DNA of 64,000 bases from Flaccisagitta enflata (lineage: Eukaryota): the NCBI GenBank assembly GCA_965153355.1, contig OZ231126.1, positions 5,270,001-5,334,000 on the forward strand, read 5' to 3'. The notes below the pieces were generated by a model. The model was not told where the DNA came from. It was given only the letters and a program-made list of their open reading frames with translations, and ran no database searches. The position numbers and the translations under genes were made by a program. Shown here in pieces: positions 34,142 to 58,350 of this stretch (position 1 is its first letter; each line of letters opens with the position of its first letter).

Positions 34142-35154
34142 TGTCCGTCTATCCTCAAGATTTAGAGCACCGTGGAATGTCGATCTCGTCCCCGATCTCT
34201 TCTCCAGCCGCCGCGGCACCAGCGAGATTTTACTCACCCAATCACGATTTGTCTTTCCTCTCGCCGGCCACCGGATCTGTCGCCGCCTTTCCCGGCGCTT
34301 TTCCGGTCGTTGGCGCCACCACCAACGCCGCTTCAGCCGATTTCAGCGCCGATCCGGCGTTTACGTCTTTCTCCTCGTCTTCTTCCTGCTCGTCCGGATT
34401 AATCGCTTCCGGAAGCCAATGCGACTTTTCCAAGGATCTCCGCGATGATGACGATGAAGGCGTCACGAAAGTTGGTAACGCGAGTTCCGTCGCCGACAGA
34501 CTGAACGGTAACAACTATGATTCTTCTACTTCTTCTTCATCTTCCAAATCCGTCAACAACCGTAACGGGTCATCATCATCAGCGTCAAAATCCGATAACC
34601 AAGAATCTCATCCCTCATCTTCTCCGCATAGTCACGTTAGAAAAGACAAGGATAAAATAATAAGCATGAACAAGAATGACGACTCTACGTCTCGTTCCGT
34701 CTCCGCGCCCCCATCAACCAACAGAAAGAGACTCAAGGCGAAACGGAAGAATAAAAACAATCATAACGCGAGTAATAATGATTATAAAAACGATAGTACG
34801 ATGAACAATGTGACGAATAACAGTAAAACCAATAGTAATAACAAGAAAAAGCACAAGCATAATAAACAGAAAACTCAATCGTCCTCATTTTTGTTGTCAT
34901 CCTCCTCAGCCAAAAACGATAACGGCAACGGCGGCGGCGGAAATGGAGCGGAGTCAAACGGAAATGGCGCCGCCACTCCTTCGTCGGAACCAGTAGATGC
35001 GGCGTCATCCCCCAACTCCTCGTCAACCGCGGCGGCGGCTTCTGAAGAGGCGGCGCCATCTACTCCCGGCAAAAACCCCGTCATGATTTTGAACGAGTTG
35101 AAGCCGGGATTGAAGTACGAGTTTGTGTCGGAAGTCGGAGAAAGTCACGCCAAG
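34142..35154 (+). CDS. ADARB1: ADAR2-like exon: S/N/K-rich linker and first half of dsRBM2
   Basis: Ends GKNPVMILNELKPGLKYEFVSEVGESHAK|gtcggt. Three in-phase acceptors are possible (34142, 34160, 34166). Confidence 0.8.
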
Positions 35155-35655
35155 GTCGGTCGATGTGGGTTAGTTTGCTGGCGTAAGTTTGTCAGTCGAT
35201 GTGTGTTAGTTTGCTCACTTTGCTGGCGTTTGTTTGCTAGTCGATGTGTGCTAGTTTTCTAGCGTTAGCTTGTTCCTCCCTTCATCGTTCAACGGTTACA
35301 GATTTTTAGTTGATTTTTAGGTGTAAAGATGAATAGAACGGTTATGTATGTTACGCGGAGGTCTTGTCTCTTAGCTCAAAATTTGCGCTCTCTTTTACTA
35401 CACCAATTTCTGTGCCATCTTTTCTTTTTGAAGTCTTAATGATTTTTAGTTGCGGACACGCAACTCTATAAAGGTTGGTCCATTGGTCCGTCTGTGGTAA
35501 TCGAATCGAAAAGTGGAAAAATGAGTTTGAGTGTGTGGGAGTGGGGGTTTGGATGTAGATGGGGTTTGGATGTGGATGGGGGTTGGAGGCCCCTGCCCAC
35601 CCGTCCACAACGCGTCACTTGTTTCAAAAATTTATCATCAATTTTCCCAATACAG

Positions 35656-38587: not shown

Positions 38588-38699
38588 CCCTCAACACCCT
38601 CTCTTCTACCTTCCCCCCTTTCCCCTCACCGCCCTCTTTTCACTACCCTTTTCTTTCTCAGTGATTTTTTTTTCGCCTCCATAGTCCTTATCGTCTTTC

Positions 38700-39485
38700 C
38701 TAGCCTGCCCTTCGCCCTTCCTGGTCCTCTCTCTTCTTCCCCTGCCCTTCGCCCTTCCTGGTCCTCTCTCTTTCTCTTCCTCCCCTGCCCTTCGCCCTAC
38801 CTGATCCTCTCTCTTTCTCTTCCTCCCCTGCCCTTCGCCCTTCCTGGTCCTCTCTCTTCCCTGCCTTTTGCCCTTCGCCCTTCCTGGTCCTCTCTCTTTC
38901 TCTTCCTCCCCTGCCCTTCGCCCTACCTGGTCCTCTCTCTTTCTCTTCCTCCCCAGCCCTTCGCCCTACCTGGTCCTCTCTCTTTCTCTTCCTCCCCTGC
39001 CCTTCGCCCTACCTGGTCCTCTCTCTTCCTCCCCTGCCCTTCGCCCTTCCTGGTCCTTTCTCTTCCTCCCCTGCCCTTCGCCCTTCCTGGTCCTCTCTCT
39101 TCCTCCCCTGCCCTTCGCCCTACCTGGTCCTCTCTCTCTTCCTCCCCTGCCCTTCGCCCTTCCTGGTCCTCTCTCTTCCTCCCCTGCCCTTCGCCCTTCC
39201 TGGTCCTCTCTCTTCCTCCCCTGCCCTTCGCCCTACCTGGTCCTCTCTCTTCCTTCCCTGCCCTTCGCCCTACCTGGTCCTCTCTCTTCCTCCCCTGCCC
39301 TTCGCCCTTCCTGGTCCTCTCTCTTCCTCCCCTGCCCTTCGCCCTTCCTGGTCCTCTCTCTTCCTCCCCTGCCCTTCGCCCTACCTGGTCCTCTCTCTTT
39401 CTCTTCCTCCCCTGCCCTTCGCCCTCCCTGGTCCTCTCTCTTTCTCTTCCTCCCCTGCCCTTCACCCTCCCTGGTCCTCTCTCAT
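38700..39485. repeat. 35-41-bp pyrimidine-rich minisatellite (CCCTGCCCTTCGCCCTTCCTGGTCCTCTCTCTTCCTC)n
   Basis: About 20 tandem copies visible. Confidence 0.93.
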
Positions 39486-40293: not shown

Positions 40294-40964
40294 ATGACTA
40301 TGAGCTTGCTCATTTGGTCGATTCGGTGGGTCGCTAGCTTTACTTTATAAAGCGCGCGACGGTCGGACGGACACAGACCTGACAGCGATGCCACTTTTGT
40401 GTGAAATGTTTCCCGCTTTCCTTTACTGATTAGTTAAGGGTGTTTATCCAAATGGGCTAATAAAGTTAAATAATAAATGGACTTTTCACTCTTTCCAATA
40501 GGCTCGAGCTCTCTTACCTTTAGATCTTAATGCGAGCCTCTCGATGATATAATGGACAAATGAAGAATTCTATCTGGCTCTTCCCAAATTCTTACACGAA
40601 GCTGAAATTTGTTTTGAGCATCTTGATGAAAATGGGTGAAGTGAGCCAAAGATTATTGACTCCTGATTCTCTCTCTCACCCAAAATAACAAGGCGAGGCT
40701 CTTTAAAGATCGAGACTGTACCGGAAATTGGGCTTTTCTCCACGTCCAGTCTCTTTTAGCTTTTCCAAGATTTTCTTTTGGATTTCCTTCTCGTTCTCTT
40801 TCGTTCTTTCTTTCTTTCTTCCTTTCTTTCTTTCTTTCTTTCTTTTTCTTTCTTTCTTACTTTCTTCCTTTCTTTCTTCCTTTCTTCCTTTCTTTATCGT
40901 TCTTTCTTTCTTGTTCTTTCTTTCGTTCTTTCTTTCTCTTCTTTTCGCTCTCTCTCTCTTTTTT

Positions 40965-41040
<76 letters not shown>

Positions 41041-41582: not shown

Positions 41583-41599
41583 GTAGGAAGAGGATGATG

Positions 41600-41648
<49 letters not shown>

Positions 41649-41779
41649 CGATGATGATGGTCATGGTGGTGGTGATGATGATGATGATGGTGATGACGAT
41701 GATGATGGTGACGATGATGATGATGGTGACGATGATGATGATGGTGACGAATGGCGATGATGGTGGCGAATGGCGATGA

Positions 41780-42455
41780 TGGGGCAGGGTATACCTAGTC
41801 GATCCATGAGGGATGAGGCAATTACCATAAATATGACCAAATATCCACCATGTCACCAATTCAAAGCTACTTACTAACCTTGTTCCTTGACTTGTTCCTC
41901 GACTTGTTCCTTGACTTGTTCCTTGTTCTTAAACGATCTACCTCAAAGGAGACCAGGTTTCCTTTGCCCACTATGAGTGTTTTTAGTGTTACATCGCCAA
42001 GTAAGCCTCTAAGGCATATCACATCTGAGTGAAAGAAGAAGAACCTATTTAGCTTATTTTATACAGTTGTTGCCTTTATTAAGAATACACACTGAGTATC
42101 TGACAATGATGATATACTACAAGCTGGAAGTGGGAGGTCATCAAGTGACTGTGTCCCTGAACTTGGTAGACCCAAGCTAAGTGGCTAAGTTTTCCTTTGG
42201 ATAGATCAAAACTACTAAATACTATCAAGCCACTCAGAGTTGAGACCAACAAGTGATTATTTAACTAGTTTATCATCAATAAAACCATAAAAACAATATA
42301 GCTATGAAAACTAGACAACAAGAGGAGTAAGGATAACTAAATAACAAACTAATGAAAATATAACATGAAAACTTATAAGTCGATGAATGCTCATCGACAA
42401 TATGCAAATGAGATTATTGCATCACTCCTCAGTGGATCACTTACGCTCTGCCACA
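41780..42455 (-). repeat. 3' LTR (676 bp)
   Basis: Direct repeat of 58353-59028; I found one mismatch (A42018 vs T58591). Confidence 0.97.
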
Positions 42456-42931
42456 TATACGTTGGCCTTCCGGAAATAAAGACGTCCTCGTCGCAAAAAT
42501 AACAAGAAAAAAAAAGGAAGCTAGTCAGCCGTAAATCACAGCCTCAAGGGCAGTGGCGACCAACAGAAGGAAGAAAGAAAAAGTGAAAAGACACAACGCA
42601 AGAAAAGAAAAAAAAACTAGGAAAGGAAATGCCGTAAGTCGCGACCTCAAGGGCCGAGGCGACAAAACCAAAGAAGAAAAAGAGTAAAAAATGAGGACGA
42701 GACAAAACACTGACCAACAAATTCCAAAACATAGGCCAAAAAAACGCAAAAAACGACGTACAGATCAAAACGGGAATCTAAATGCCAACGGGACAATGAT
42801 AATCAAAAACATGATCAACAGAGAAAGTATACCACTAATCTCGTCAAAATCCGCGGAAAGAGAAAAAAAAAAACAAGAAAAACATCAAATTCTTTGTAAA
42901 GAGAAGAAAATGGGTAACAAAATAACGAGAA

Positions 42932-44239
42932 TCACAGAGACAGAGAAAAGGAATCAAGGTGATCATAGAACCTCACGAGCGTAACGTCGTTACCACGGGC
43001 ATAGATGATGGAAAGTCCAAAAGGCTCAAAACAGAAAGTCGGAATGACGAAGTCGACATATTCGCAAACGCGGAATCTGTTCTCACCTACGAAGACGAAG
43101 CGCGTACCCGGTTCGCTGTAGTCGACCAAGGCATGAAAGAAGACGTCAGAAGAGGTTGCATGGTGCAACATGTTGGCCCTGATTCGCGAAAAATGGCGTG
43201 GAACACGAATCTCGCCATAACGCCGACCAGGATCATCGATGACGATGTTGACGCCATAGAAACGGAAATTTTCATCGGCGTAGTTGGCGTTCCCGGACAA
43301 GGGCTTCTGAGCGATGAGGACGTGAGGATAAGCCAGGCGCGGCTCATGGAGAACCGACGGGGAAGCGACGAGGAATTTCTCCGTGATTTGGCCAGAGGGA
43401 ATGTGGTGGCGTTCAACAACGAATGAGGCATCGCGGTCAATGAGAAGGAAAATATCCTTCCCGACAACGTCGTAGTCGTAGACGAAGGAGATTTGCCCAC
43501 TAACGCTCCTATTGTAGGAGATATTGACCGGAGTGGGATTGAAGTCGTCGTGACGGCCCAACGAATACGCAACGATGCCATTGAAATCGAGGATGAAAGT
43601 AGCCAAATAATACTCCGATTTCTTCAACGGTCGTCGCATGGCCGGAAAATAACGTGGGACAACCGAGCAGACGTCCGCATGGCTCGCCCAGTTGTAGACG
43701 TCGAAATGATGACGATGTTCATCGACCGGAGGACGCAAGAAGAGGAAGTCGCCATGGAGAACGATTTGGCGATAACATTCGATCGCCGTGTCAATAGTGA
43801 CGATCGCCGGACTACCAAACTCAAGAAGAGAGAAGATCTCGATCTTCTTTGATGTCGCAACCGCCATGAGAGAGGCAGCCGTGTCCACGGAGATGCCGTC
43901 CACCACCGTAGGGAATGACATTGAGACGTCGGAGGCTGAGTCAGCCGAGAAGATTTGCGCTTTGATGGCGCAGTATTCGATGTGCGCCTCACAAACTTTC
44001 TTCACTAACACACTCTGCTCATAAACTGATGGATCTTTGAGGGCACGAAAGTGGGCAGGATCAATTGCAAAAAGCTGCTGGGCTCTCTTGAGCCAGAATT
44101 CCCTTATGGTGACAACTTGATGGTGGATATATTTCGAGGTTATCATGAGTTCTCTGGCGTCATCTACCGAGAGATACTTCAAAATGCATTCTGACACATC
44201 TTGATTCGGAAATGGAATTTTGCTGATTTCAATTCCCAT
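42932..44239 (-). CDS. Retroelement ORF4: F-box protein with a beta-rich (propeller-like) C-terminal domain, 435 aa
   Basis: Intact and intronless, ATG at 44239. The N-terminus IPFPNQDVSECILKYLSVDDARELMITSKYIHHQVVTIREFW fits the F-box consensus. The downstream part has short hydrophobic strand repeats (DGISVD..LMAVATSKKIEIFSL). Confidence 0.7.
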   Translation of the reverse strand: MGIEISKIPFPNQDVSECILKYLSVDDARELMITSKYIHHQVVTIREFWLKRAQQLFAIDPAHFRALKDPSVYEQSVLVKKVCEAHIEYCAIKAQIFSADSASDVSMSFPTVVDGISVDTAASLMAVATSKKIEIFSLLEFGSPAIVTIDTAIECYRQIVLHGDFLFLRPPVDEHRHHFDVYNWASHADVCSVVPRYFPAMRRPLKKSEYYLATFILDFNGIVAYSLGRHDDFNPTPVNISYNRSVSGQISFVYDYDVVGKDIFLLIDRDASFVVERHHIPSGQITEKFLVASPSVLHEPRLAYPHVLIAQKPLSGNANYADENFRFYGVNIVIDDPGRRYGEIRVPRHFSRIRANMLHHATSSDVFFHALVDYSEPGTRFVFVGENRFRVCEYVDFVIPTFCFEPFGLSIIYARGNDVTLVRFYDHLDSFSLSL

Positions 44240-44437
44240 GATTAAATCTGATCTTGTCTGATTGGAATGTGTCTCTTGTAAATCAAAAGAGAAATATGAC
44301 CTGAATGACTTGAAAAATAAAGGCAACAACAACCGAAAGTAAATACTTAACCTTGAGCAGATATGAAGGATGATCAATGTAGAACGTAGAGAGTTGATAA
44401 CAGAAGCGGCGCAATCGCGGAAAAACTTGATTTAATA

Positions 44438-45199
44438 CACAGCCATCAATCTCGTTTGAAAAATTGTTTTAAGCTTTTTCTCAGAGATGCATCAACTGAG
44501 TGATCTGAAATCAATTTTTCCTTGAAGAGCATTGATTGACGTTTTTTGTATCAAAATTTTATGGACTTGGGTAGAATAGTTTTCATTTTATGTCAATTTG
44601 AAGTATGAGTAGTTTCAGAGGTAAAATATAGGAAAATTGTTGTTTGACAAAGCAGTTCCTCTTTAAATTGGTCTCATTTCTAAACGGCTTGAGCTACAGA
44701 TGCCAGATTGGTCTCAAATGAAAGATAATTTAATGTACTTTTAGCTAACAAAAAGAGGAAAACAGTCTTGAACCTATTTGTCATACTTTTCATTCAGAAA
44801 CTTTCAAATCAAAGGAATTTTGTTAAAGAAACGATTTCAAGGATATGAAACTTACTTTAAATGCCAATTCATTTACCAACCGAAGGAAATTTGAAAAACT
44901 ACATCAAATTATCTTTCATTTGAGACCAATCTGGCATTTTTAGCCCTAACGGTTTAGAAATGAGAGCATTTTAAAGAAAGACATTCTTGTCAGCAATGTT
45001 TTAATTTCTCTTCAGCTGTAAATACCAAAATTACTTCAAATTGAGGCTGCAAACAAACTATTCAACCTAGACCAATGAAATTTTGACACAAAAAACGTCA
45101 AACATAGTACTTGAGAAGAAAATTCATTTCAGATCATGAAAATAAACCATTGAGGCACAAAAGCTTAATACTTTTTTTCAGTTGAGATTGATGACCCTG
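44438..45199. mobile_element. Diverged MITE (TA TSD) nested between ORF3 and ORF4 of the retrotransposon
   Basis: TA|CACAGCCATCAATCTC ... GAGATTGATGACCCTG|TA, with ~300-bp imperfect arms including ATGCCAGATTGGTCTCAAATGAAAGATAATTT and its exact inverse. Confidence 0.85.
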
Positions 45200-45549
45200 T
45201 AACGACGGGAAAAAAAAGGTTTAACTTGATCGTTGTAAATGTAAGTAATACGTAAACAGTCTGGAGGTAGAAAAGTCGTTTTGTAAATGTCGTGATTCTA
45301 ATATTTTAAACTATATAGACTTACCAGTAAATTAAAAAAAAAAAGTCAAACCCATGAGGCTCAAGAAGAGAGGGAGAGACGATAAAAAAAAGATAAGCGC
45401 AAAAAGAAAGAAAATGAAAAAAACCTAAGTGTCAAAGCCACAATCCCCAAGACGGAGAGGCAAAGACGAGAGAAAAAAAAACCTGTAGGATAAAATGAAG
45501 AATGTTAGACGTTTCAATGAGTAAATATCACAGTAAAGAGATAGACGAA

Positions 45550-48500
45550 TCATTTCTTCTTCAAGAAGTCCTTTCTATTTTTTCCCTTTCTGTTGTAAAT
45601 GATCTCGGCCGTAGCCGCAAGTCCCTTGTTCCAAACTTCAGTGCCAAGGAACTGCACTGCAAAGAGACGGAGAAGCCGGAATTTGATGATGATGTGCTTC
45701 TTAGAAAGAGTAGAAATCGAAAATTCCCGTGGGGATGCCAAGGTGCGTCGGCAGAAATCCTCGTTAAGAACCGACTGCGCAAGAGTGTTAAAATCTCCTT
45801 TCATATTCAATTGGTTTGCAAGTTGGGCGTGATCAAGGATGTTCTTCGGGGCAAAGGTGCCAATGAATTTCCTTGCCAAGGTAACGGTAAGTTTCCCCAT
45901 GTGAACATAAAGTCTGGCTTTTTCAACCGCGCAAAAGAGTTCCTGAACAACTTTTCTGTCAACATGGAGATCGTTGACTTTGAGAAAGAAGATTTGTTTG
46001 TCAACGTAAAAGATGAAGAAAACAACATCGGAAGTTTCAAACACGGAATTGTTCTGCAGTTGGCCCATGACAACCACGTCGGCCTTTTCAACATGATTTC
46101 GTAAGACTTGGATCTCATCAAATTGTGTGACCACCATAGAGGATTGATTGACGATGAGTTGATGCAGATTTGGGGAGTTAGTACATTGTACGTCTATCCA
46201 GGGTGTGTGATGAGGCGCAAGTTGACGTTCCGTGATTGGGGCATTGGTCATGAGGCTGAGATGGTAAGCAAGTTGGGGTATTTCTATGTCGAGATACGCG
46301 CAAATTTGACGACTGATCTCCGGGTTAGTGCAGAACGCGTATATTCTTTCCTTCAACTCACCCTTTTCAATTTCGCCGACTTTGAACGAGTCGCAATAAG
46401 ACCGAATGTAAGGCTCGACGGCGACGAAGTACTCGAGAAAAGGATTTCTTAACATCTTTCTTTGACTCAGGGTTTCCACCTGTTTGCTCACGTTTACAGG
46501 CGAGAAGTCGACGTTAAAAAATTCATCTACAGCAAGAATGGGATTGTCGGGTGGCAAAATACCAAATTCCTGGATGATTTTCGCCTTCTCTTCATCGCTC
46601 TTAAAGGCAAAATGAGTCGCGTAAGTGAGAAAGGCAGAAATGGTTTCGACGGGAATAAGAGTGGTAAGTTGGAGAAAATTTGGGGCTTTTTTGGTGCGGC
46701 AATGGAGGATGAGATATTGGGGCTGAACTCGATCGAGAATGTCAAGACGGAAAAAAGTGAAGAGAGGATCAGAGTTGTAGGTTTCATGTTTTACAAAAGA
46801 TTGAAAAAGCAGCTTCCAATCCCAATTTGAACTCGCGACGGAAATCGCGACCTTGCCGACTTTCGATTTCAGCTTAAGATCCTGAATCTTCTTAATAGTG
46901 AGGGCCATCGCGTCATAAATGTTAGGCGAGGAAGAATGACATGAAAATTGTACGAAAGCGTCGCTACAAGTGTCGTGATAATCGGTGGCCCCGATCATGC
47001 GGGAATATATATGACCCTTAATGGATTCCAGCGAGTCGGCGTCGTCATCGAGGGCGTAGGACTCAGAAGGCCCCAAAATCTCGGGAATTCTAACTTCATC
47101 TTCATGCGGACCAACTTTGACCTGTTTTTCCGAATAAATATCGTCCCGCTCAAAACTACGACGTTTGCGCAACGATGAGACAACTTCAATGGGTTGCTGC
47201 TCAGCACAATCCTCAACATTGCAAACCATAAGATTCCTTTCGTTTATGAAGGCTGATCGTGAATTGTTTATGACATCAGAATGTGAATCAACCGGCATTT
47301 TATCATTGACGAGACTGTTGTTTCCGGAAATGACGACGGAGATTGGAAGGTTATCACTTACACGATCATCTAATTCCGACGTCGCTTTACCGTTAAAAGA
47401 GTCGTCTTGGGCGTGGATTCCCGGAAATTGATCGGCGTTAGAGTCTTTGTTTTTGTCGTCATCGCCGGAACCGAAGCTGTTGATGTCTTTTGTAGAGCTG
47501 TAAGCGGCCCCCAGGGGCTTAGGGGACCGGTGCACTAAAGACGCGGTGTAGCCCGATTCGTTTTGTTCATCAGAGGCGGCTTGAGCGGTGACTGAAATTT
47601 TTTCAATTTGAGTGGAACTAACCCCCCTATCTCTAACTGATTCCACGACTTTACCGGCGTCGCCGTTGGAAACGTAAGACGGGACCAAAGATTTGTGAAA
47701 GGGCAGAGACAAATCAGCCACAATAAAGGCGTTTACCAGATTGTCGTAGTCAATGACAATTGGGTCCAAATTAAGACCAAGAACTGGAAAAATACCATCT
47801 TCGCGCACGTGAATAGCCTGAGCGAATTTCGCGATGTCCCATTGAATTCCGTCATTCACCTTAATACCACCCCAACCTGTTGTGAATATGCATTCACCGA
47901 AGAAAGTGTAGAGAATCAATTTGGGGTCGGCCGGGGCGTAGCGGCGCATTTTACTTGACCAAGCTGAGAGTTTCTGATCCCATTTTACCATTCGCGTTTC
48001 AACGTCTTTTTCCCAGACGATGGGGGTTGTTGGAGGGCAAGTGCCGAAAACAAAATCGAACGCATCTTTGGCCGACCATGTATCTTTGTCATTGTTGGAC
48101 GTCTTATTCAACCAAACGCGAATCTTTTTGTAAATCGCTGTAACGTCAATGATCTGGGTGATGGCATCATTCAAATGGTATTGATTGTTTATCATTTTCA
48201 ACTCAACAAAAAGTGCGGCATCACCTACAATAACCGTATTTTCGTCCGACAATACGTCCATAAACGACCCATGGAGGAACTTCTTTCTTCCCGCTGCAGC
48301 GTGTTTCGGTGGACTAATTGCACAAAAGTCGGTTAAGATGACGACGGTGCGGATCAAGTAACGATTTACGCTGTACGATAATTGTATTACGCAAACTTGG
48401 TTAGGCTGACGTGGAATCTGTTTCTGCTCTGTGTCAAGGGAAATGAAGTTCTTAAATCCACGTTCTTTCAACTCACGGGATCTATTGAGGATTTTCTGCA

Positions 48501-48738
48501 TTTCCGTTGCTAAACCCGCGTCGTCATCAACAAAAGTGACAGTGTCCATGTCTATGGGGAGACGTTGAATGGTGCCCGCGTTCACTAACTTATCCTCCCT
48601 TTCCTTTAGTAAATTCGCCTCCTTGATTTTATCGCGAGTCTTTTCCCACTTCGTTCTTTGTTTCTTCCCGGCATAGTTGAGGTTGAAGTCGTTGAGCTCG
48701 GGAGAGGGTGAACGCGAAGCGCGGCCGCCGGAGGCCAT
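45550..48738 (-). CDS. Retroelement ORF3: DEDDy 3'-5' exonuclease-domain protein (WRN/EXD/Mut-7-like fold), ~1062 aa
   Basis: Intact and intronless, ATG at 48738. ExoI-like ISLDTEQ (DTE 48427-48435), then VCVIQL, VLSDENTVIVG, IIDV, K..W..L and ExoIII-like YAPAD (47926-47940). Confidence 0.75.
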   Translation of the reverse strand: MASGGRASRSPSPELNDFNLNYAGKKQRTKWEKTRDKIKEANLLKEREDKLVNAGTIQRLPIDMDTVTFVDDDAGLATEMQKILNRSRELKERGFKNFISLDTEQKQIPRQPNQVCVIQLSYSVNRYLIRTVVILTDFCAISPPKHAAAGRKKFLHGSFMDVLSDENTVIVGDAALFVELKMINNQYHLNDAITQIIDVTAIYKKIRVWLNKTSNNDKDTWSAKDAFDFVFGTCPPTTPIVWEKDVETRMVKWDQKLSAWSSKMRRYAPADPKLILYTFFGECIFTTGWGGIKVNDGIQWDIAKFAQAIHVREDGIFPVLGLNLDPIVIDYDNLVNAFIVADLSLPFHKSLVPSYVSNGDAGKVVESVRDRGVSSTQIEKISVTAQAASDEQNESGYTASLVHRSPKPLGAAYSSTKDINSFGSGDDDKNKDSNADQFPGIHAQDDSFNGKATSELDDRVSDNLPISVVISGNNSLVNDKMPVDSHSDVINNSRSAFINERNLMVCNVEDCAEQQPIEVVSSLRKRRSFERDDIYSEKQVKVGPHEDEVRIPEILGPSESYALDDDADSLESIKGHIYSRMIGATDYHDTCSDAFVQFSCHSSSPNIYDAMALTIKKIQDLKLKSKVGKVAISVASSNWDWKLLFQSFVKHETYNSDPLFTFFRLDILDRVQPQYLILHCRTKKAPNFLQLTTLIPVETISAFLTYATHFAFKSDEEKAKIIQEFGILPPDNPILAVDEFFNVDFSPVNVSKQVETLSQRKMLRNPFLEYFVAVEPYIRSYCDSFKVGEIEKGELKERIYAFCTNPEISRQICAYLDIEIPQLAYHLSLMTNAPITERQLAPHHTPWIDVQCTNSPNLHQLIVNQSSMVVTQFDEIQVLRNHVEKADVVVMGQLQNNSVFETSDVVFFIFYVDKQIFFLKVNDLHVDRKVVQELFCAVEKARLYVHMGKLTVTLARKFIGTFAPKNILDHAQLANQLNMKGDFNTLAQSVLNEDFCRRTLASPREFSISTLSKKHIIIKFRLLRLFAVQFLGTEVWNKGLAATAEIIYNRKGKNRKDFLKKK

Positions 48739-49680
48739 AGTGAAAGATGATGATGATGAATAGAAAAGAGAGAAATGAAAGAGTTTAGAGATGGTAGTCT
48801 GCGCCACAATCCCCAAGACGGAGAGACGCAGACAGAGAAAAAAAAAGGAGAGGATAAAATGTTTTTCAGTGGGAGGAAGCAGTGAAATAATGAAATTAAG
48901 AAAGATGATGAGATGAAATTAGAGAAATGATGAGGACAGTAAGCGATGAAATGAACAGGCCCTTGCCACTATCCCCAAGACGGAGAGACAAGGACAAGAA
49001 AAAAACAATTAAGAGAGAAAAAAATATGATGATGAATAGTTTCACAGAATGGTGACTAAAGAAGGAAAAGGGTGGAAATGGATGATGAGGGAAATTGAAG
49101 AGAAGAATAGCGAGTTGGCGGCGATGGTATGAAAGATATCACGTGAAGACTATCATTTTCGACTATCACAGAAAGATTATCACTTTATGACATTAAGAGG
49201 CAGAAGAAGATGGGTTTGACACAATTACGTCCTTATTTTATCGACGATTTATTTACGACAGTCAATTTCTGCTACCGTCTGTACACTCAGGTCCGAATAT
49301 TCTCTAGTCGGCGTTTTATACTATGGACTAATTATTGTAATGACCGACGAAGAGAGGAGTGAGAGCGTAGTAAATTTAGCCATCATATTTTTGGCAGACT
49401 CGAAATTTTCATGTTGATCCGTTTTAATTCATTGCGGCGATGAGAAGAGAATTTACGCGGTCCACGACGGGTATAATTCTGTCGCGTAGACGCGACCGAA
49501 AAACGAGTCTAATCTGCACGAATTTCTATAAGTAATTTATCCTTCAGCCTGTTCAAAGGGAAATAACATTTCTCATAATGAATTCAATTGCAATTTGATG
49601 CCGATAAAATTGGTATCCCTTTGGCCGATGAAATTCAAGTGTTAAAACCAATACAAAGACAGCAGATATGAAGAACGACA

Positions 49681-52600
49681 CTATTTCGGCGTGCTAGCTT
49701 TGGGACAAAACCCGTCATCATCATCGTCAAACGAAGTTTCTTCTCGATCATCACTTTCCTCCTTTGGAATATAGGGTGTCGCCACTTCTAGTGATTGGAA
49801 CATGTCAGACTCAAAACCCGTTTCATCGGCATCTGCTTGAGCTTGAATGGCGCAAGTGTTAATTTTATTGCAAATGTTTACCATCGAAGTCGTGGGCGCC
49901 TTCCGTTTTGATGATTTGCCCTTCTTAGGCTTTTGCTTCGCTGGCTTTTCAGTTGAATCAGGCCCAGCCACTTTTCTCTTCCGGGAGTTGTACTGCATTT
50001 CGCCACCATCGGAACGAGGGGACAGATTTGGATCATCGATAAGGATTACCGTGCTATGAATAGCCTGAGAAGTGCCCGGCTGGGCATTTTGAGCAAAATC
50101 GGCTAAAGTTTCATTTTCATCAAAATTAGACTCAGGGTATAAGGCTTCCTGGTCAGTTTGGACTGATAGATCAGGTCTAGGCATTTGAGTAAAAATGTGC
50201 GGATTTGTACTAGTGATTGTCTGAGGCGAAATACGCAAATGACTGGTTGCTGAATTGTCCGGAGGGAATAGTAGTGAAGAGTGGGGGGTGGGAGAAAGAG
50301 ATGGTAACGAAAGAATAGGTCTAGATGCGGGTGGCGTTGCCAGGTGAGAATGAGGAAAAACAGTAATATCTAGAGTTGTTTCGGAAGCAGGCGTTGGAGG
50401 TGGGGGATTTGGATGGTCAGCGTCTAACGTTTGAATGACTGGTGTCGTTGGGGGTGCTGGAGCTGTAGACGGGCGATCGTACGACAACAATGAACCAAGC
50501 AAAAAGGCTTTAGATTTTGATCTAGTCATTATTTCATTGTTAGGGTCTACAGGCAGGACAGATTTAGGCACAACAGACGCGGAAGCAGAAGAGCGTAGAA
50601 TAGATTTCCGCGCATTTGCCCCCGTAATTGTAAGACCAGGGCCCTGATCAGCCGATTGAATACTGCCATGCGAAGCCGCGGGAGGAGCGAGAGGAAGAGG
50701 AGCAGGAGGAGGAAGAGCATGGGAAGGAATTATCTGTTGGTTTGAAGGCGTGGCAGGAACAGTATAAGGTTTAAGATGGTTGTGGTGTTTCGTGCGTGAG
50801 ATACCATGCTGGTCCTGACAGGTGTAGTTGACACTGGCCTCATCAGGCCTCGGAATAACTTCAACCACTGTTGAGGGCCCGTCCCAGTTAGGAGTGAGTT
50901 TTAGAGGGACATTGCGTGGCTGAAATTCCCATACATCATCGCCGCTTTTGTAGGGGACATATTTGGCCTGTTTGTCGTAGTTTGTCTTCTGTCTTTCTTG
51001 TTCCTTCTTCATTTGCTCTTGGACCTGCTGAATGGCCTCAGTTTGTTTATTGCTGTAGGAATTGACATAGTCCCTTACTGAAAATTTGGCTTCAGGAGAT
51101 GGTAGAATGCCATCAATTGGGAGGGTTGGTTGAAAGCCGTAGAGAACGAAGTAAGGAGTCTGGCCAGTGGTGGCGTGTACAGTTGTGTTAAAGGCATACT
51201 GTAGGAATTTAAGCAGGTCAGGCCAATCTGCCTTGGTTTCTAGGATGCGTTTTGTGAGTTCCGTGATAATTTGACGATTTTTGTTTTCCACCACCCCTTG
51301 AGATTGGGGGTGGTAGGGTGTGCTAGAGGACTTCTTGATCTTGAGATACTGGCAGAGAGCGTTGATGATATCATTTTGGAATTCTCCTCCGTTATCACTG
51401 CTGAATGACTCAGGTGGCCCATGGCGTAGAGAGAAATCCGTGAGGCAGTCAACGATGGCAGTAGCGGTCTTGGAGCGAGAAGGGTAGAGTTCGACCCATT
51501 TTGAAAATAAGTCGATAATTACGATGACATAACAGTAACCCTTGCGAGAGGTAGGCAGTTTGAGTACGTCTGCCATCACACGTTGAAATGGTCTGGAGGC
51601 CTTGATGGAGATCATAGGAGCCTTGTTAGGAGGGTTGGGTTCACGAAGGCATTGGCACTCCCGACAATTTGATACGAACTTTTCGATATCGCTCCAAAAG
51701 GAAGGCCAGATGGCATAGTTTTTGACCATGCGAATCATCTTGTCTTTTGAAGGATGACCGACGAGGGGACCACCGTGTAGGCTCTGAAGGACTTCTTGCA
51801 CCATAGTTGGCGGGACAATTGCTTGGAGAATCGTGCCTTGGAAATCATCAGTCTTCGCAGCGCGGTAAAGGACACCCTTTTTGAGTCTGAGGTGAGGATA
51901 GTGTTTAGCATACCAAGGATCGTTGATCGCACCCTCGTCTGGTCTGAGACGCCTGTGTTTGAGTTTTTGTTCAATAACCGAAAGGATGGTGGGGTCGTTT
52001 CTCTGTTCCGCCACAAGTCTTTCTTCCTTCTCTTCCTCGCAGAAGATTGAAACTAGAGGAGCTTCAGTGATGTCTAATGCACCCAGGCAGTAAAGATTCC
52101 GATCATCGGCAGCCGTAGTGAGATCAATGAACTCTTGTCGGTCCCAGTTTTGGTCCTCAAGTGCCATTGAGCAAAAGAAGTTGGCAAAATGGTTATCTAG
52201 GCCATCAGGGACTTCGACGTCATCTTCATCCTCCATAGGACGACGACTCATGGCATCAGCATCAGAGAGTTTGGCGCCAGGGACATAGACAAGTGTGTAG
52301 TGGAAGCTAGCCAGGAAAATTTTCCAACGGTTTCTCCTTCCATTTGGGTCATCTGTGTTTGGATCAGGTTTCTTGATAGAGAGAAGAGGTTTGTGGTCCA
52401 CAATGGCGACAAAATGGGAGCTGGCCAAGAAATGACGGTAAGTTTTTACCCAATTGTAAAGAGAAAAGAATTCCCTGTCAAAGACCACCCAAGTGGTTTG
52501 CCGGTTGGTTAACTTTTTCGAATCAAAGCAGATAACACGCGTCAAGTCATCATGGATTTGCTGAAGGACGCAGCCGATGGCAAGAAGGCTCGCATCGGTT

Positions 52601-54597
52601 TTGAGAATAAACTCCTTGTTGAAGTCTGGAACTGCAATGACAGAATCAGAAGTGACTGAGCCAACAAGTTTGTCAAAAGCAGCTTGACATTCAGGGGACC
52701 AATGGAAGGGGACGTCCTTCTTGGACAAGTCCGTTAGAGGAGCGGCGATATGCGAGTAAGACTCAATAAATTGACGATAGAAGGAGACTAGTCCAAGGAA
52801 ACCTCTGGTTTCCGTCAGGTTCTTAGGCACTGGCCAACTGAGTATTTTAGAGATGTTGTGCGGGTCAGGCTTCAAACCGCTAGCCGAGAGGAGGAATCCA
52901 AGAACAACGACTTCCGTTTGACAAAACTTTGACTTTTCAGGATTTAACTTTAATCCAGCCCTCTCTAGAGCAGAGAGGACCTCGTCGAGTAGATGGAGAT
53001 GATCACGGTACGTTTCCAACGCCATCAATATGTCGTCAAGGAAAGTAATCAGGAAGCGAGGGTCGAAGTTACGAAAAGTGATCTGCATCAAGGCATTCAT
53101 GGAGGAAGTTGCGTTTATTTCCCCCTGCGGGCACCTGGCCATTTGCCAGTGCCGCATGGGGGTACTAAACGCATAAAACTTACAATCACAGCGAGCAATG
53201 GGGATTTGATGGAACCCCGAACTTAAGTCGGCCTGAGAGAAAATGGAGCCTTTGACCCGATGTAGACAGTCTCCGATGTGAGGCATTGGGAAGTGTATAC
53301 GTTCAGACATGGCATTGAGCCGTCTCAGGTCAACAACAAATCTCGAAAGCTCACCACTTTTTTTCGGCACCATAAGCACTGGAAAGTTATAAGGACTGTC
53401 GCTTGGCTCAACAATACCATCACGATGCATCTGGTCCACTTGGCGTTCAATGATCTCAGCGATCTGAGGTGTTGTGCGGTATTGGGGAACGTTGATGGGA
53501 GGACCTGGCTTGATGCGACAGAAATGCTTAAGCAGGGTGGCCTCACCTAAATCACTTTTAGTCTTCGAGAAGGCTTTTTCATGCTTCACTTTGAGAAGAT
53601 GCTCCAGTTCGGCAGGATCTTCTCCAGGAGGAATTTTAGCATTGGAGAGGTCCAATATCAATGGTCTGGTTGCATCATCAGGGTCCGGAGCTTTCACGAC
53701 CCGAGGGATGGATCTTTTTCCTTTGGCAGCGCAGAATTGGGAGTCAGAGTATAGGCAGAATGAGTCAGAAGGAAGTTCAGTTTGCTCTGGAAGGGGGATT
53801 TTATCGATAGCTTCAAACACGCAGAATGGTTCTTCAAGCTGGGAACCACAGAACTCAAAAGTTGCTAAGAGTGTTTCAGCTGGAATGACTGCTGGCGTAG
53901 GGAGAGTATTGAAGACCTCACAGTATGTGGTACCTTGATCCATAGAGGAAAGAGATGATCCGACTAAGACACCCTCTGCTGGACAATAGTCAATAAAAGG
54001 TTGAGACAGAATTGTTGAAGAGCCAGACCTTTGAAGATATGCTAAGTCCGCGTGAATGTAGGCTTTAATAGGCATGCGCGAGAAGGGAGGGATGACCACT
54101 GGTTCGAAGGCTGAAAGATGAGGAGGATGCGGCGGCTTCTCTCTCAAAAGGAAGGGGGTGGAGACACCTTTGATAGTGAGATTGTTCGATTCCAGATTTA
54201 TGATAGCCTTCCTGTTGCACAGAAAATCCCAACCGATAACAATTGGACGGACGAGACCACGCATAATCCTACAGTTGACCACGAAGTGTTGACCAGAAAT
54301 GTTGAATGGCAACTCGATCAGTCCAATGGTGACAACATCATTTCCATTGATTGAGTGCCCAACATCAGTTTGGGGTGAAAATTTACATTTTTGCAAGAAG
54401 GGACATCTCTGTACTTCCATCTCAGAGATTAGGCAGGTGGAGCAGCCAGTATCGACGAGAGCACAGACTGTTCGATCACCAATGGAGACTTGAATTTCTG
54501 CATAAATATCTGGTTTTGGTTCCTGACTAAGTTGAGCCTTAGGTTGAGTTTCGCCGACACGCTCCCGACTCTCGGAGGTGTCTGCATTTAAAAATCC
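49681..54597 (-). CDS. pol: Gypsy pol (protease, RT, RNase H, integrase), expressed by a -1 frameshift from gag
   Basis: Frame is open upstream of the listed ORF and contains protease ALVDTGCS (~54439-54462). RT DLSSGFHQI..FLDD; RNase H TDAS; integrase H..H..CREC, D..DNG.EF..E; WDGP. Confidence 0.96.
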   Translation of the reverse strand, partial: GFLNADTSESRERVGETQPKAQLSQEPKPDIYAEIQVSIGDRTVCALVDTGCSTCLISEMEVQRCPFLQKCKFSPQTDVGHSINGNDVVTIGLIELPFNISGQHFVVNCRIMRGLVRPIVIGWDFLCNRKAIINLESNNLTIKGVSTPFLLREKPPHPPHLSAFEPVVIPPFSRMPIKAYIHADLAYLQRSGSSTILSQPFIDYCPAEGVLVGSSLSSMDQGTTYCEVFNTLPTPAVIPAETLLATFEFCGSQLEEPFCVFEAIDKIPLPEQTELPSDSFCLYSDSQFCAAKGKRSIPRVVKAPDPDDATRPLILDLSNAKIPPGEDPAELEHLLKVKHEKAFSKTKSDLGEATLLKHFCRIKPGPPINVPQYRTTPQIAEIIERQVDQMHRDGIVEPSDSPYNFPVLMVPKKSGELSRFVVDLRRLNAMSERIHFPMPHIGDCLHRVKGSIFSQADLSSGFHQIPIARCDCKFYAFSTPMRHWQMARCPQGEINATSSMNALMQITFRNFDPRFLITFLDDILMALETYRDHLHLLDEVLSALERAGLKLNPEKSKFCQTEVVVLGFLLSASGLKPDPHNISKILSWPVPKNLTETRGFLGLVSFYRQFIESYSHIAAPLTDLSKKDVPFHWSPECQAAFDKLVGSVTSDSVIAVPDFNKEFILKTDASLLAIGCVLQQIHDDLTRVICFDSKKLTNRQTTWVVFDREFFSLYNWVKTYRHFLASSHFVAIVDHKPLLSIKKPDPNTDDPNGRRNRWKIFLASFHYTLVYVPGAKLSDADAMSRRPMEDEDDVEVPDGLDNHFANFFCSMALEDQNWDRQEFIDLTTAADDRNLYCLGALDITEAPLVSIFCEEEKEERLVAEQRNDPTILSVIEQKLKHRRLRPDEGAINDPWYAKHYPHLRLKKGVLYRAAKTDDFQGTILQAIVPPTMVQEVLQSLHGGPLVGHPSKDKMIRMVKNYAIWPSFWSDIEKFVSNCRECQCLREPNPPNKAPMISIKASRPFQRVMADVLKLPTSRKGYCYVIVIIDLFSKWVELYPSRSKTATAIVDCLTDFSLRHGPPESFSSDNGGEFQNDIINALCQYLKIKKSSSTPYHPQSQGVVENKNRQIITELTKRILETKADWPDLLKFLQYAFNTTVHATTGQTPYFVLYGFQPTLPIDGILPSPEAKFSVRDYVNSYSNKQTEAIQQVQEQMKKEQERQKTNYDKQAKYVPYKSGDDVWEFQPRNVPLKLTPNWDGPSTVVEVIPRPDEASVNYTCQDQHGISRTKHHNHLKPYTVPATPSNQQIIPSHALPPPAPLPLAPPAASHGSIQSADQGPGLTITGANARKSILRSSASASVVPKSVLPVDPNNEIMTRSKSKAFLLGSLLSYDRPSTAPAPPTTPVIQTLDADHPNPPPPTPASETTLDITVFPHSHLATPPASRPILSLPSLSPTPHSSLLFPPDNSATSHLRISPQTITSTNPHIFTQMPRPDLSVQTDQEALYPESNFDENETLADFAQNAQPGTSQAIHSTVILIDDPNLSPRSDGGEMQYNSRKRKVAGPDSTEKPAKQKPKKGKSSKRKAPTTSMVNICNKINTCAIQAQADADETGFESDMFQSLEVATPYIPKEESDDREETSFDDDDDGFCPKASTPK
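54556..54597 (-). promoter_or_regulatory. -1 programmed ribosomal frameshift signal
   Basis: Slippery G GAU UUU (54597-54591) just before the gag UAA, an 8-nt spacer, then hairpin GACAC-CTCCGA-GAG-TCGGGAG-C-GTGTC. Pol is in the -1 frame. Confidence 0.8.
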
Positions 54598-56156
54598 CCA
54601 TGATGAGCAAAAATTGGTGGCTCACACTGTTGGGCATAGTGAGCAGAGTGGCTTTCATCAGCAGGCATGTTAAAAGAGACAGACTTTGGAGGGAGCATTG
54701 GCGTAGTTAAGTTATGATCGATGTTATTGTAGTAAGGAGGCCCATTAGGCTCAGGCATTGGGCCAAATCCATTGAAGTTTTGAGAGGACCCGCGATTTTG
54801 CATTTGGCCAGAAGCACCCAAGTTACGAGAGCTGCTGCCGGAGTGCGGCGGCGGCGGAGGCTGTTGCGGCGGCGGCTGCTGCGGCTGCTGTTGGCCTTGT
54901 TGATGTTGATTGCGGAATTGGTTAGGCTGATAAGGGCGGCCGCTTTGATGATTCGAAGAATTTTGGCCATCTTGTCGGTAGTGCTGATTACCTTGCTGAT
55001 AAGACTGCGAACTAGGCCGATACTGCTGATTTTGGTAAGAGTGTTGATTGGTCTGATGATGAGATTGCTGATAAGGCTGTCCGCTCTGTTGAAAAGGAAG
55101 ATTGTTTCGATGATAGGATTGTCCACTTTGCTGATAAGGACGATGAGGACTGACCGGCTGATTGGGTTGATAAGATGGGCTGGGGTGATACGGCTGATTG
55201 TGGTGCTGAGAATTATGAGAGGGATAAGGCTGCTGCGGAGGGTAATTGCGATCGAAGGAGGGAGGCCGGCGATTGAAATCCTGACCGTTACGATTTGGCG
55301 AACGGAACGGCGAACCATGAGGGGACCGTTGGCCATATGCGGGTGTAAAGTTGCTTCGACCGCCAGGGGAGTAAGCGCGAGAGCGGCGCTCGGTCCCAGA
55401 TTGGGTTGAAAGATGTTCGATTAAGCTATTGATAGACTTGTTTGTCTCTTTCTGCATGGCAAGAGACTCTTTGTGCGCGAGCGATAGTGCACTGATCTGA
55501 TCGGTGAGATTATCAACCACGGGGTTCTTGAAAGCAGCCAGAACGGGAGGGACAGCTAAGGCAGCAGAAAGAGGCAGTTTAGAATTTAACAGACCAGTGT
55601 ACGGCGAAGTGCCGTTGTTGCGGGACAGGATGTCTTTAAACTTTACGGCGCGTACGCGGGCCATGGTGACGTCGGTAGACCTTACAGGCATCCCAGCATC
55701 AACATAGTGTTGGTAGTCGGGAGGCAGACCAGCGATGAACCGTTTGAATACCTCACGATTAAACAAATCCTCGTTGGCAACGACATCAGGATCGTATTGG
55801 CGGGTGGCAGAAATGATTCTATTTTCGTAAATTGACAGTGGGGACTCACCATCCCATTTGATAAAATCAAGCTTAGACTTGAATGTCTGTGCCTTCGAGG
55901 GGTCCGTAAATTTCTGTATGAATTCCGCTTTGAGAGCTTCCCAATCGTCATTATTCTCAGAGGACTCATACAGCGTTAAAGAGAAATCATCAAGTTTAGT
56001 TGGCAGAATCCGTAGGTAGGCAGATTTCTTTTGAGCGGCAGTAGCATCGGCGGCCAAATGCGCATCAACAGACCTCTCATACCTCTTCAGGAAGATGGTT
56101 ACGTCTTGGCCGCTTTCATAGGAAAAGGGCTTTATATCGACGAATTTGTGCTCCAT
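54588..56156 (-). CDS. gag: Gypsy gag, 522 aa
   Basis: ATG at 56156. Capsid-like PFSYESGQDVTIFLKRYE..WEALKAEFIQKF..FIAGLP, followed by a Q/N/P/S/Y-rich tail; lies directly upstream of pol. Confidence 0.9.
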   Translation of the reverse strand: MEHKFVDIKPFSYESGQDVTIFLKRYERSVDAHLAADATAAQKKSAYLRILPTKLDDFSLTLYESSENNDDWEALKAEFIQKFTDPSKAQTFKSKLDFIKWDGESPLSIYENRIISATRQYDPDVVANEDLFNREVFKRFIAGLPPDYQHYVDAGMPVRSTDVTMARVRAVKFKDILSRNNGTSPYTGLLNSKLPLSAALAVPPVLAAFKNPVVDNLTDQISALSLAHKESLAMQKETNKSINSLIEHLSTQSGTERRSRAYSPGGRSNFTPAYGQRSPHGSPFRSPNRNGQDFNRRPPSFDRNYPPQQPYPSHNSQHHNQPYHPSPSYQPNQPVSPHRPYQQSGQSYHRNNLPFQQSGQPYQQSHHQTNQHSYQNQQYRPSSQSYQQGNQHYRQDGQNSSNHQSGRPYQPNQFRNQHQQGQQQPQQPPPQQPPPPPHSGSSSRNLGASGQMQNRGSSQNFNGFGPMPEPNGPPYYNNIDHNLTTPMLPPKSVSFNMPADESHSAHYAQQCEPPIFAHHGDF

Positions 56157-57024
56157 AATTGGTGTAGGAAGTTGAAATATCGAAAGCAGATCTAAGGCAG
56201 CGCCCAGGTTTAGGAATCGGGAGAAGGCGTGGACTAAGTGCAACCAAGCGGCAGCGGTCCAGTCAGCCAAAAAAAAAAACTATGATAAAAATTTTAATAT
56301 GGATGATGAATGGTCGGATATATTGGTAGGTAAATGTGGCACGCTCGCGTTGCTAAACTAACGACAACGGCGACGACGACGACGACGACGACGACGCAAC
56401 TACGGCGATGAGAGAAAGATTTGAGGGGGGGTACAATTATAGCAAGTTGCGGACGGGTGGGCGCGGGCGAAAAGTGAACGAAAATTGTGAGCAGAGAAAT
56501 GAAAACGGCGGGCGAAGGGTCTGATGAATGAGAGGAAGAGCACTTGATGCCTAAGTGCAGCCAGGTGGATGCGGGCAGCAAGTGAAATAAGATTTAGAGA
56601 TGAGAACCGGACACAATCACTAGTACTTAAAAGAGGCAATGATGGCACCCAAAAAAAAGATGATGATCCGGAAAAAAAATGATTTTTGCAAAACTTGGAG
56701 CTTTTTATTCCCATATTCCAAAATGTAAAAGAGTAGAGAAAAGAGGAGAGAGAAAAAAAACGCGGATTTTGAGAGAAGAGACTTAAAGCTAGTGGACTAA
56801 GTGCGGCCAAGCGGCGCGCGGTCCTGCTAACCAAAGAGGAGAGATTTTGAGTAAAAGCAGATTTGTGTAAAATCGATTACCATTTTATGGTAAGAAGAAA
56901 TCAGTGTGTTCTTTCAAGGCAACGCAAAATGATGGTTAAAAACATGGAAGCTAATTACTTTTTTATTCCTAATCCGCGAATTCTCGGAGCTTTAGCTCTT
57001 TGATTACAAAACCGTAATTTGTAT

Positions 57025-58332: not shown

Positions 58333-58350
58333 CAATCCCAAGATGCACCA
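58333..58350 (-). promoter_or_regulatory. Primer-binding site, probably tRNA-Gly(GCC)
   Basis: TGGTGCATC.. starts 2 nt after the 5' LTR. It is complementary to the ..GAUGCACCA 3' end of invertebrate tRNA-Gly(GCC) (from memory; 9 nt exact). Confidence 0.7.

Follow-up and report, generated by a model that had tools for sequence, protein, structure and literature searches.

A recent Ty3/Gypsy element of Flaccisagitta enflata with two additional genes, a candidate double exonuclease and a probable F-box protein

The window analyzed here is a 64,000-nucleotide stretch of the Flaccisagitta enflata genome (assembly GCA_965153355.1, contig OZ231126.1, positions 5,270,001 to 5,334,000), numbered from its first letter. 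It contains an intact Ty3/Gypsy element of 17,249 bp on the minus strand (41780-59028). Four long open reading frames (ORFs), all on the minus strand, occupy the element: gag, pol, and two additional frames, ORF3 and ORF4, located between pol and the 3' long terminal repeat (LTR). We favor a reading in which this recent and intact element carries its own accessory genes, with ORF3 as a double exonuclease and ORF4 as an F-box adaptor, both serving the element, and we hold the case for that reading to be evenly balanced with the case against it. The element is laid out as follows.

41776-41779, strand not applicable: left copy of the target-site duplication, ATGA; the same four bases lie beyond the other LTR
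41780-42455, minus: 3' LTR, 676 bp, identical to 58353-59028 at 675 of 676 positions
42932-44239, minus: ORF4, 435 amino acids
44090-44218, minus: F-box-like region of ORF4 (residues ~8-50), placed by alignment to relatives with sub-threshold matches
44436-45199, strand not applicable: nested insertion resembling a miniature inverted-repeat transposable element (MITE), 764 bp including one TA, between ORF3 and ORF4
45550-48738, minus: ORF3, 1062 amino acids
45592-46173, minus: predicted pseudo-exonuclease domain of ORF3 (residues ~856-1049), with a Nibbler/RNase D-like DEDD fold, then a basic tail
46246-46926, minus: all-helical domain of ORF3 (residues ~605-831), conserved
46939-47661, minus: linker of ORF3 (residues ~360-600), acidic, Ser/Asp-rich, poorly conserved and probably disordered; its modeled part (560-592) is of low confidence
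47839-48486, minus: DEDDy-type 3'-5' exonuclease domain of ORF3 (residues ~85-300), with D102, E104, E179, Y267 and D271
49681-54621, minus: pol, encoding protease (VDTG), reverse transcriptase, RNase H, integrase and a long Pro-rich tail
54588-56156, minus: gag, 522 amino acids, with a Q/P-rich C-terminal half
56157-58352, minus: leader between the 5' LTR and gag, 2.2 kb, unusually long
58353-59028, minus: 5' LTR, 676 bp
59029-59032, strand not applicable: right copy of the target-site duplication, matching the left copy

The boundaries of the element come from a direct-repeat scan of the window, which returned two identical 300-nt blocks, 16,573 bp apart, that were then extended to the LTRs. 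The sole mismatch between the LTRs is an A at 42018 versus a T at 58591. On the sense (minus) strand, the LTRs read TGTGGC...GCCCCA and so have TG...CA ends. The insertion is recent. The original prediction made for this DNA, of a young, intact and very long Gypsy element whose LTRs differ at one base and which holds two intact, co-oriented ORFs between pol and the 3' LTR, stands in each of these respects. At 61/64 per codon, the chance of a random open frame is 7e-23 for 1062 sense codons and 9e-10 for 435 codons, and the open frames of ORF3 and ORF4 are therefore not chance events.

The Ty3/Gypsy assignment follows from the order of protease, reverse transcriptase, RNase H and integrase in pol, where Pfam places RVT_1 at 352-509, RT_RNaseH at 599-706, Integrase_H2C2 at 869-924 and rve at 942-1038. 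Counted from its first ATG, pol spans 49681-54420 and encodes 1579 amino acids, but its frame is open from 54621. This frame lies at -1 with respect to gag, whose end it overlaps, and the stretch on the overlap side encodes the VDTG protease motif; because the open frame overlaps gag in this way, Gag-Pol is presumably produced by a -1 frameshift. The gag ORF itself matches Retrotrans_gag at 19.8 bits (E 9.5e-4), under the Pfam cut-off of 24.1, and its position upstream of pol fits. The leader has a putative primer-binding site that starts with TGG, 1 nt past the LTR. The leader also contains two open frames with no Pfam match, 158 and 162 codons long from stop to stop, and word depth is raised in the part of it close to the LTR.

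The N-terminal part of ORF3 can be placed in Pfam family PF01612 (DNA_pol_A_exo1) by way of its relatives. The window copy scores 16.5 bits (E 0.0075, residues 91-162) against a gathering score of 23.6. Three relatives exceed that score, P0016 at 37.4 bits (3e-9), P0034 at 26.9 and P0043 at 24.1, and all three are homologous to ORF3 at E values of 5.5e-117 to 7.8e-11; a further relative, P0024, falls under it at 22.5 bits. The motifs that define DEDDy enzymes are DxE in ExoI, D in ExoII and Yx3D in ExoIII. In the alignment, the ExoI residues DTE (D102 and E104) are retained in seven of the eight sequences covering the site and the ExoIII residues (Y267 and D271) in five of six. The ExoII acid is Asp in P0016, P0024, P0034 and P0043 and is Glu in the window copy (E179) and in its close relative P0041, a substitution that, as judged from the alignment, is a conservative DEED variant. 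The original prediction of a DEDDy-type domain in ORF3 is thus borne out by the three relatives that pass PF01612 and by the aligned D-E-(E/D)-Y-D motifs, and these motifs suggest that the N-terminal domain is probably a catalytically active DEDDy exonuclease.

The C-terminal half of ORF3 (residues 560-1062) is the best-conserved part of the protein and matches no Pfam family. An AlphaFold2 model of this half, built with 21 aligned sequences, has a mean predicted local distance difference test score (pLDDT) of 83.6 and a predicted template modeling score of 0.69, and it comprises an all-helical domain (~605-831) and an alpha/beta domain (~856-1049). A Foldseek comparison of the model with the Protein Data Bank (PDB) gave 32 matches at E<=0.001, and among the matches listed all are DEDD-type exonuclease folds, including nucleases, Pol I, and the inactive Exd1 and Egalitarian. 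The best match is the EXO domain of Drosophila Nibbler (7jw6, E 4.8e-5, TM 0.66 on target), which VIA-align superposes on model residues 297-502 with a Z score of 19.2 and a root mean square deviation of 2.9 over 196 of 226 residues. The corresponding Z scores of the C-terminal domain are 18.6 for Escherichia coli RNase D, 16.5 for human RRP6, 15.1 for WRN-exo, 13.6 for Exd1 and 13.4 for Egalitarian. Viral structures are matched as well, among them Pol A exonuclease domains and giant-virus DEDDy exonucleases. Sequence identity of the domain to solved structures is 8-14%. No structural match to the helical domain was found among those listed, and an Atlas search of residues 600-850 returned no usable match.

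Although the fold is present in the C-terminal domain, its catalytic acids are gone, and the domain is therefore predicted to be a pseudo-exonuclease. The segments at the ExoI strand, the ExoII helix and the ExoIII helix (VVMGQLQ, GKLTVTLARKF and KKHIIIKFRLL, respectively) have no conserved acids, with the catalytic positions placed by the order of secondary structure elements rather than by residue-level superposition. The ExoI Glu is absent in all aligned relatives. ORF3 thus probably combines one active and one dead exonuclease fold in a single chain. A profile-profile comparison of the N- and C-terminal alignments detected no relationship (probability 0.04), so internal duplication is not shown by sequence. 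With respect to ORF3, the original prediction of a DEDDy exonuclease holds for the N-terminal domain but missed the dead second fold and the helical domain. The proposed affinity with the Mut-7/Nibbler/EXD group survives in part, as Nibbler is indeed the top structural match; however, this match belongs to the dead C-terminal domain, where Nibbler and E. coli RNase D lie within 1 Z unit of each other and are tied.

A word-based search with whole-length ORF3 against 5.8 billion proteins gave no match. An exhaustive HMMER search of 1.84 billion representatives found 32 relatives, most of them fragments on short ENA contigs; 28 reach E<=1e-10, and 15 of these reach E<=1e-30. P0016 (835 amino acids) is 33% identical to ORF3 and matches it in two stretches, whereas P0051 (1008 amino acids) matches the C-terminal half at 28% (E 2e-58) and the N-terminal domain at 23% (E 2e-11). 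Judged from these alignments, the domain architecture of ORF3 is conserved across lineages at 28-33% identity. One public predicted protein of 153 amino acids, P0035, joins an unrelated N-terminal part to a stretch 96% identical to the final 57 residues of ORF3; it lies on a short contig and is probably a chimera produced by gene calling.

For ORF4, searches returned three clusters, or four with a profile: near-identical variants at 98-99% identity (n=10, nine intact at 435 amino acids and one with an altered C terminus), a relative of 427 amino acids at 81% identity, and a deep lineage of 429-431 amino acids at 43-47% identity. At codons 215, 220 and 243, the window copy has Phe, Asn and Asn, respectively, whereas the ten near-identical variants have Tyr215, Asp220 and either Asp (eight) or Glu (two) at 243; from these differences, the window ORF4 comes from a slightly different sub-lineage. 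When eight sequences of the family were scanned, six matched F-box models, always at residues 11-50; no match came from the window copy or from P0003, which is truncated at its N terminus. The matches to PF12937 (F-box-like) have E values of 2.4e-4 to 5.7e-3, the best scoring 21.2 bits against a cut-off of 24.3, and the best match to PF00646 (F-box), at 20.0 bits, falls just short of the 20.5 required. Of the 30 nearest clusters in the ESM Atlas, 27 are F-box proteins (top score 0.95, 190 shared features), although language-model neighbors are a lead and not proof. The AlphaFold model of ORF4, at low confidence, has helices at 15-97 followed by ~20 beta strands, a layout that would fit an F-box plus beta-propeller-like arrangement without establishing it. 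Taken together, the sub-threshold matches and the neighbors make an F-box protein the probable identity of ORF4, and its C-terminal region is predicted to be beta-rich. The F-box identity in the original prediction thus retains the support of six of eight family sequences and of the language-model neighbors but draws none from the window copy itself. The fold comparison proposed at that time as a check on both proteins yielded a confident DEDD fold for the C-terminal half of ORF3 (Z 19.2), whereas the ORF4 model was unusable for the purpose.

A different account of ORF4 starts from its position, which is that of env. Under this account, ORF4 is not an F-box protein but a beta-rich, possibly N-myristoylated protein that associates with membranes or particles, replaces env or matrix, and would act in egress or cell-to-cell spread. 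Both deep lineages (A2 and A5) keep M1, G2 and S6 without exception, and the resulting MGxxxS N terminus resembles an N-myristoylation signal. The model of ORF4 establishes no fold, all of the F-box matches are sub-threshold, and none is in the window copy. These sub-threshold matches, however, coincide in position across three lineages, at the same N-terminal residues, and involve F-box models only, and the neighbors in the ESM Atlas point the same way. ORF4 also lacks a signal peptide or membrane helix. A membrane helix is usually taken at a Kyte-Doolittle mean of ~1.6, and the highest 19-residue means are 1.28 in ORF3 and 1.42 in ORF4. The hydropathy scan found neither a signal peptide nor a hydrophobic stretch fit for a membrane anchor in either protein, and the original prediction was correct that neither ORF is env-like. 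On balance, we consider it unlikely that ORF4 is an env or matrix replacement and retain the F-box assignment.

The spacers around the two cargo genes hold repeats of two kinds, the first of which is the MITE-like insertion between ORF3 and ORF4 that had been overlooked in the original prediction, correct though that prediction was about the two ORFs. This insertion ends in imperfect inverted repeats, contains a further inverted repeat of 250 bp and shows a TA duplication. In sequencing run X1 it reaches a word depth of 274,110 versus ~600 alongside (~450x), and it is very abundant in two marine-metagenome runs too. Contigs of runs X1, X3 and X4 join 44435 straight to 45200, and from these joints the common form of the family is without the MITE. 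The second kind is a 61-nt pyrimidine-rich direct repeat (87% identical) that brackets ORF3 at 48803-48861 and 45437-45497, ~65-120 nt upstream of the ORF3 ATG and 53-113 nt downstream of the ORF3 stop. A 23-nt core, CTCTCCGTCTTGGGGATTGTGGC, has three matches in the cargo spacers, on the sense strand only, where none is expected (100 shuffles):

48965-48987, minus: copy 1 of the 23-nt motif, one mismatch, in the spacer between pol and ORF3
48803-48825, minus: copy 2, within the 61-nt repeat, 65 nt upstream of the ORF3 ATG
45437-45459, minus: copy 3, within the 61-nt repeat, downstream of ORF3 and upstream of ORF4

The 61-nt repeat may serve both cargo genes in subgenomic expression, as a splice acceptor or as an internal control element, or it could be a scar from the acquisition of ORF3. 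The 23-nt motif ends GGGGATTGTGGC. Because this end resembles a purine run followed by the LTR start TGTGGC, the motif might be an internal plus-strand priming site.

To assess how the cargo genes are maintained, we mapped DNA from run X1, possibly the source of the window itself, and from runs X3 and X4 of one marine-metagenome study to the element. Coverage extends to 30 of 30 element bins in X1, 23 in X3 and 26 in X4, with 3174, 909 and 1554 contigs, respectively, all at 95-100% identity. These numbers indicate that the family is abundant and variable, and its DNA is also present in runs labeled marine metagenome. Word depth in X1, which is not a copy number, is 592-818 over ORF4, 336-1535 over ORF3 and 541-1035 over gag-pol, and this similarity suggests that most copies of the family carry the cargo genes. 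One sister contig from X1 (1735 bp) spans all of ORF4 and differs from the window at 29 positions, 27 of them within ORF4. Of these 27 differences, 18 are synonymous and nine are non-synonymous, giving a ratio of non-synonymous to synonymous polymorphism (pN/pS) of 0.146 and a binomial P of 1.3e-6 against a neutral non-synonymous share of 0.77. By this comparison of copies, ORF4 is under purifying selection. The size of the public contigs that bear ORF4 (1.5-2.1 kb) had raised the idea of a subgenomic mRNA, but the 1735-bp contig comes from a DNA run and has the same extent, and we conclude nothing from these sizes.

The low pN/pS, together with the divergent intact relatives, speaks against decay and against one-off capture from the host, two of the outcomes that the original prediction had named as telling against it, and argues for ORF3 and ORF4 as selected genes of the element. 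That one or both are instead host genes captured once, of no benefit to the element, we regard as very improbable. The cargo does differ somewhat from gag-pol in codon usage: its correlation with pol is moderate (r 0.44-0.62), its GC content at third codon positions (GC3) is 0.51 and 0.59 versus 0.46-0.49 for gag-pol, and its observed/expected CpG ratio is 1.2-1.3 versus 0.72-0.96. The 61-nt repeat also flanks ORF3 as a recombination scar might. A passenger gene, however, would not be expected to show the pN/pS of ORF4 between copies, the intact ORF4 frames at 81% and 43-47% identity and in nine of ten near-identical variants, the ORF3 architecture at 28-33% identity, or a cargo word depth similar to that of gag-pol.

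Several observations nonetheless weigh against two accessory genes, a double exonuclease and an F-box adaptor, in the service of the element. For ORF4, all F-box matches in its relatives are below the gathering scores, the window copy has no F-box match in Pfam even at E<=10, a profile of the family has no match among PDB sequences at E<=10, and the AlphaFold model is poor (mean pLDDT 38.9). For ORF3, the ExoII acid of the window copy is Glu and not Asp, and the lineage of P0046 and P0051 has lost residues of ExoI and ExoIII, which means that not every lineage depends on catalysis. A profile of the N-terminal domain gave no match among PDB sequences, and the best match for P0016 by sequence, Rrp6, is not significant (E 0.74). 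The differences listed between ORF3 copies (n=7, three synonymous and four non-synonymous) do not suffice to demonstrate selection. That ORF3 and ORF4 are physically linked is shown within the family of the window only; among JGI metagenome contigs, 66 pattern matches with the ORF4 profile and 150 with the ORF3 tail profile gave no confirmed related locus, and neither did 147 pattern matches in IMG/VR. In a poly-A RNA run from the X3/X4 study (X10), none of 12.16 million reads (~6% of the run) fell on the element, although the presence of the organism there is not shown. Finally, Rodriguez et al. detected no significant deviation from neutrality within genomes for the extra ORFs of bdelloid retroelements (PMC5408684).

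If ORF3 and ORF4 do serve the element, ORF3 would process or sequester the 3' ends of RNA or DNA, with its dead domain and helical domain binding nucleic-acid 3' ends and its live domain trimming them. By analogy with Exd1 or Egalitarian, the dead domain is most likely a nucleic-acid- or protein-binding module. ORF4 is most likely an F-box substrate adaptor, in which an N-terminal F-box-like helix bundle is joined to a beta-rich C-terminal recognition domain. It would bring the host's SCF ubiquitin ligase into contact with a host protein that holds the element in check and thereby cause degradation of that protein, a strategy that can be likened to those of polerovirus P0 and of lentiviral Vif, Vpu and Vpx, which use cullin-RING ligases. 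Our preference for genes that serve the element does not extend equally to every version of that service. A full two-part counter-defense, in which the F-box adaptor feeds a host silencing or restriction factor to SCF while the double-exonuclease protein attacks the ends of small RNAs, seems to us quite unlikely. In such a system, the dead Nibbler-like domain would capture 3' ends of small RNAs or 3' ends bound by Argonaute/PIWI proteins, and the live DEDDy domain would trim or destroy them.

It is also possible, if somewhat unlikely in our estimation, that the exonuclease of ORF3 acts on the nucleic acids of the element itself and is a replication helper rather than an agent of counter-defense. 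It could trim 3' ends of RNA or complementary DNA, remove mismatched 3' termini left by a reverse transcriptase that lacks proofreading, or mature primers; the dead and helical domains would tether it to RNA or Gag, and ORF4 would regulate the turnover or trafficking of element proteins. PF01612 is the family of the proofreading exonucleases of A-type DNA polymerases, and the structural matches include Pol I exonuclease domains and WRN. The 23-nt motif ending GGGGATTGTGGC, with its three copies in the cargo spacers, might be a plus-strand priming site. At 17.2 kb, the element is unusually long, and Terminons that bear an exonuclease reach 40 kb (PMC6431247). The authors of the bdelloid work weighed a role in silencing like that of mut-7 as well as 3'-end processing (PMC5408684), and the published view favors 3'-end processing of RNAs or single-stranded DNAs (PMC5408684 and PMC6431247). 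Nothing, however, links ORF3 to the reverse transcriptase, the P0046/P0051 lineage has lost the catalytic residues yet retains the protein, and it is not obvious what an F-box partner would contribute to the chemistry of replication.

An exonuclease gene in an LTR element is already known. A DEDDy-type ORF3 is described for bdelloid rotifer LTR elements (Juno and Vesta) and for Athena/Terminon retroelements (Rodriguez et al. 2017, PMC5408684), and an exonuclease is listed among the accessory domains of LTR elements (PMC6338049). The bdelloid precedent cited in the original prediction is therefore in print, with no mention of an F-box in the accessible text of that paper (PMC5408684). The likeness to the bdelloid elements lies in an RNase D-like DEDDy gene that is located downstream of a Gypsy-like pol, replaces env and lacks a transmembrane segment or coiled coil. 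The ExoII Glu of the window copy likewise corresponds to their DEED form, a DEDD-to-DEED change being reported for bdelloid exonuclease ORF3s (PMC5408684, section 3.3); this likeness rests on published description. Unlike the bdelloid ORF3s as described, the ORF3 considered here is ~1060 amino acids long and has a helical domain and a second, dead exonuclease fold, and the element has a further gene, the F-box-like ORF4. The DNA of its family is found in runs labeled marine metagenome, and the GC content of the window is 42.5%, which also sets it apart from the bdelloid elements. With Nibbler, Mut-7, EXD1, EXD2, RNase D, Rrp6 and WRN-exo, ORF3 shares the fold of its C-terminal domain (Z 13-19) and the ExoI-III motifs of its N-terminal domain, and with Exd1 and Egalitarian it shares a C-terminal domain without active-site acids. 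Unlike members of the DEDDy superfamily, ORF3 has two exonuclease folds per chain, is encoded by a transposon, and is 8-14% identical to solved structures.

For ORF4, the parallels are of concept and not of sequence. Lentiviral Vif, Vpu and Vpx use cullin-RING ligases, and like such viral hijackers, ORF4 is a small accessory gene near the 3' end of a reverse-transcribing or RNA replicon, with an F-box-like N terminus that could link a host protein to ubiquitination. P0 is a plant-virus protein not known to have a beta-rich C-terminal domain of the size seen in ORF4; ORF4, by comparison, has a sub-threshold F-box and a large predicted beta-rich C-terminal region. Polerovirus P0 is described as an F-box protein that uses the host ubiquitin ligase to degrade a host protein (PMC6593998). 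VANC of the Arabidopsis VANDAL/Hiun Mu-like elements is a transposon-encoded anti-silencing factor (PMC13547354) and is similar in concept only, as an accessory protein of a transposon that counters host silencing; VANC comes from DNA transposons, is related to MAIN-like proteins, acts on DNA methylation, and has no exonuclease or F-box. A literature search by title and abstract found no F-box gene in an LTR retrotransposon, nor did the main text of PMC5408684, PMC6431247 and PMC13547354. Within the same scope, we found no published report of a double exonuclease whose second domain is a dead Nibbler-like fold, of an LTR retrotransposon with an F-box-like gene, or of the two together.

Retroviruses and plant viruses carry accessory genes that disarm host defenses, and to our knowledge very few such genes are known for LTR retrotransposons. 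If either gene targets host silencing, the element would be a clear case of transposon-encoded counter-defense outside plants, and a two-part system, if real, would be to retrotransposons what suppressors of RNA silencing are to viruses and what Vif and Vpx are to lentiviruses. The dead exonuclease domain is of a type used in small-RNA 3'-end processing, here paired with a probably live one. If the exonuclease serves reverse transcription instead, it would bear on how retroelements grow past their usual size; large RNA viruses, which have a proofreading exonuclease, offer a parallel.

Outside the element, a plus-strand open frame at 31784-32557 matches the double-stranded-RNA-binding motif dsrm with a score equal to the cut-off (23.0 bits, E 1.2e-4) and may be an exon of a host gene; the neighboring frames at 32827-33624 and 34108-35262 have no Pfam match. 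Scans of the window found no Rfam family and no tRNA gene. A (GAT)n microsatellite directly adjoins the insertion site, and long CT/TCTC microsatellites lie on both sides. The '8-bp period' families returned by the repeat scan are these microsatellites, and simple repeats occupy the following positions:

41593-41765: simple repeat
40797-41038: simple repeat
59621-59904: simple repeat
3444-3952: simple repeat
19333-20400: simple repeat

Two tandem arrays lie within long open frames, one of period 37 (38616-39481, 16 copies) and one of period 21 (26232-26693, 16 copies), and are possibly repetitive coding exons or minisatellites.

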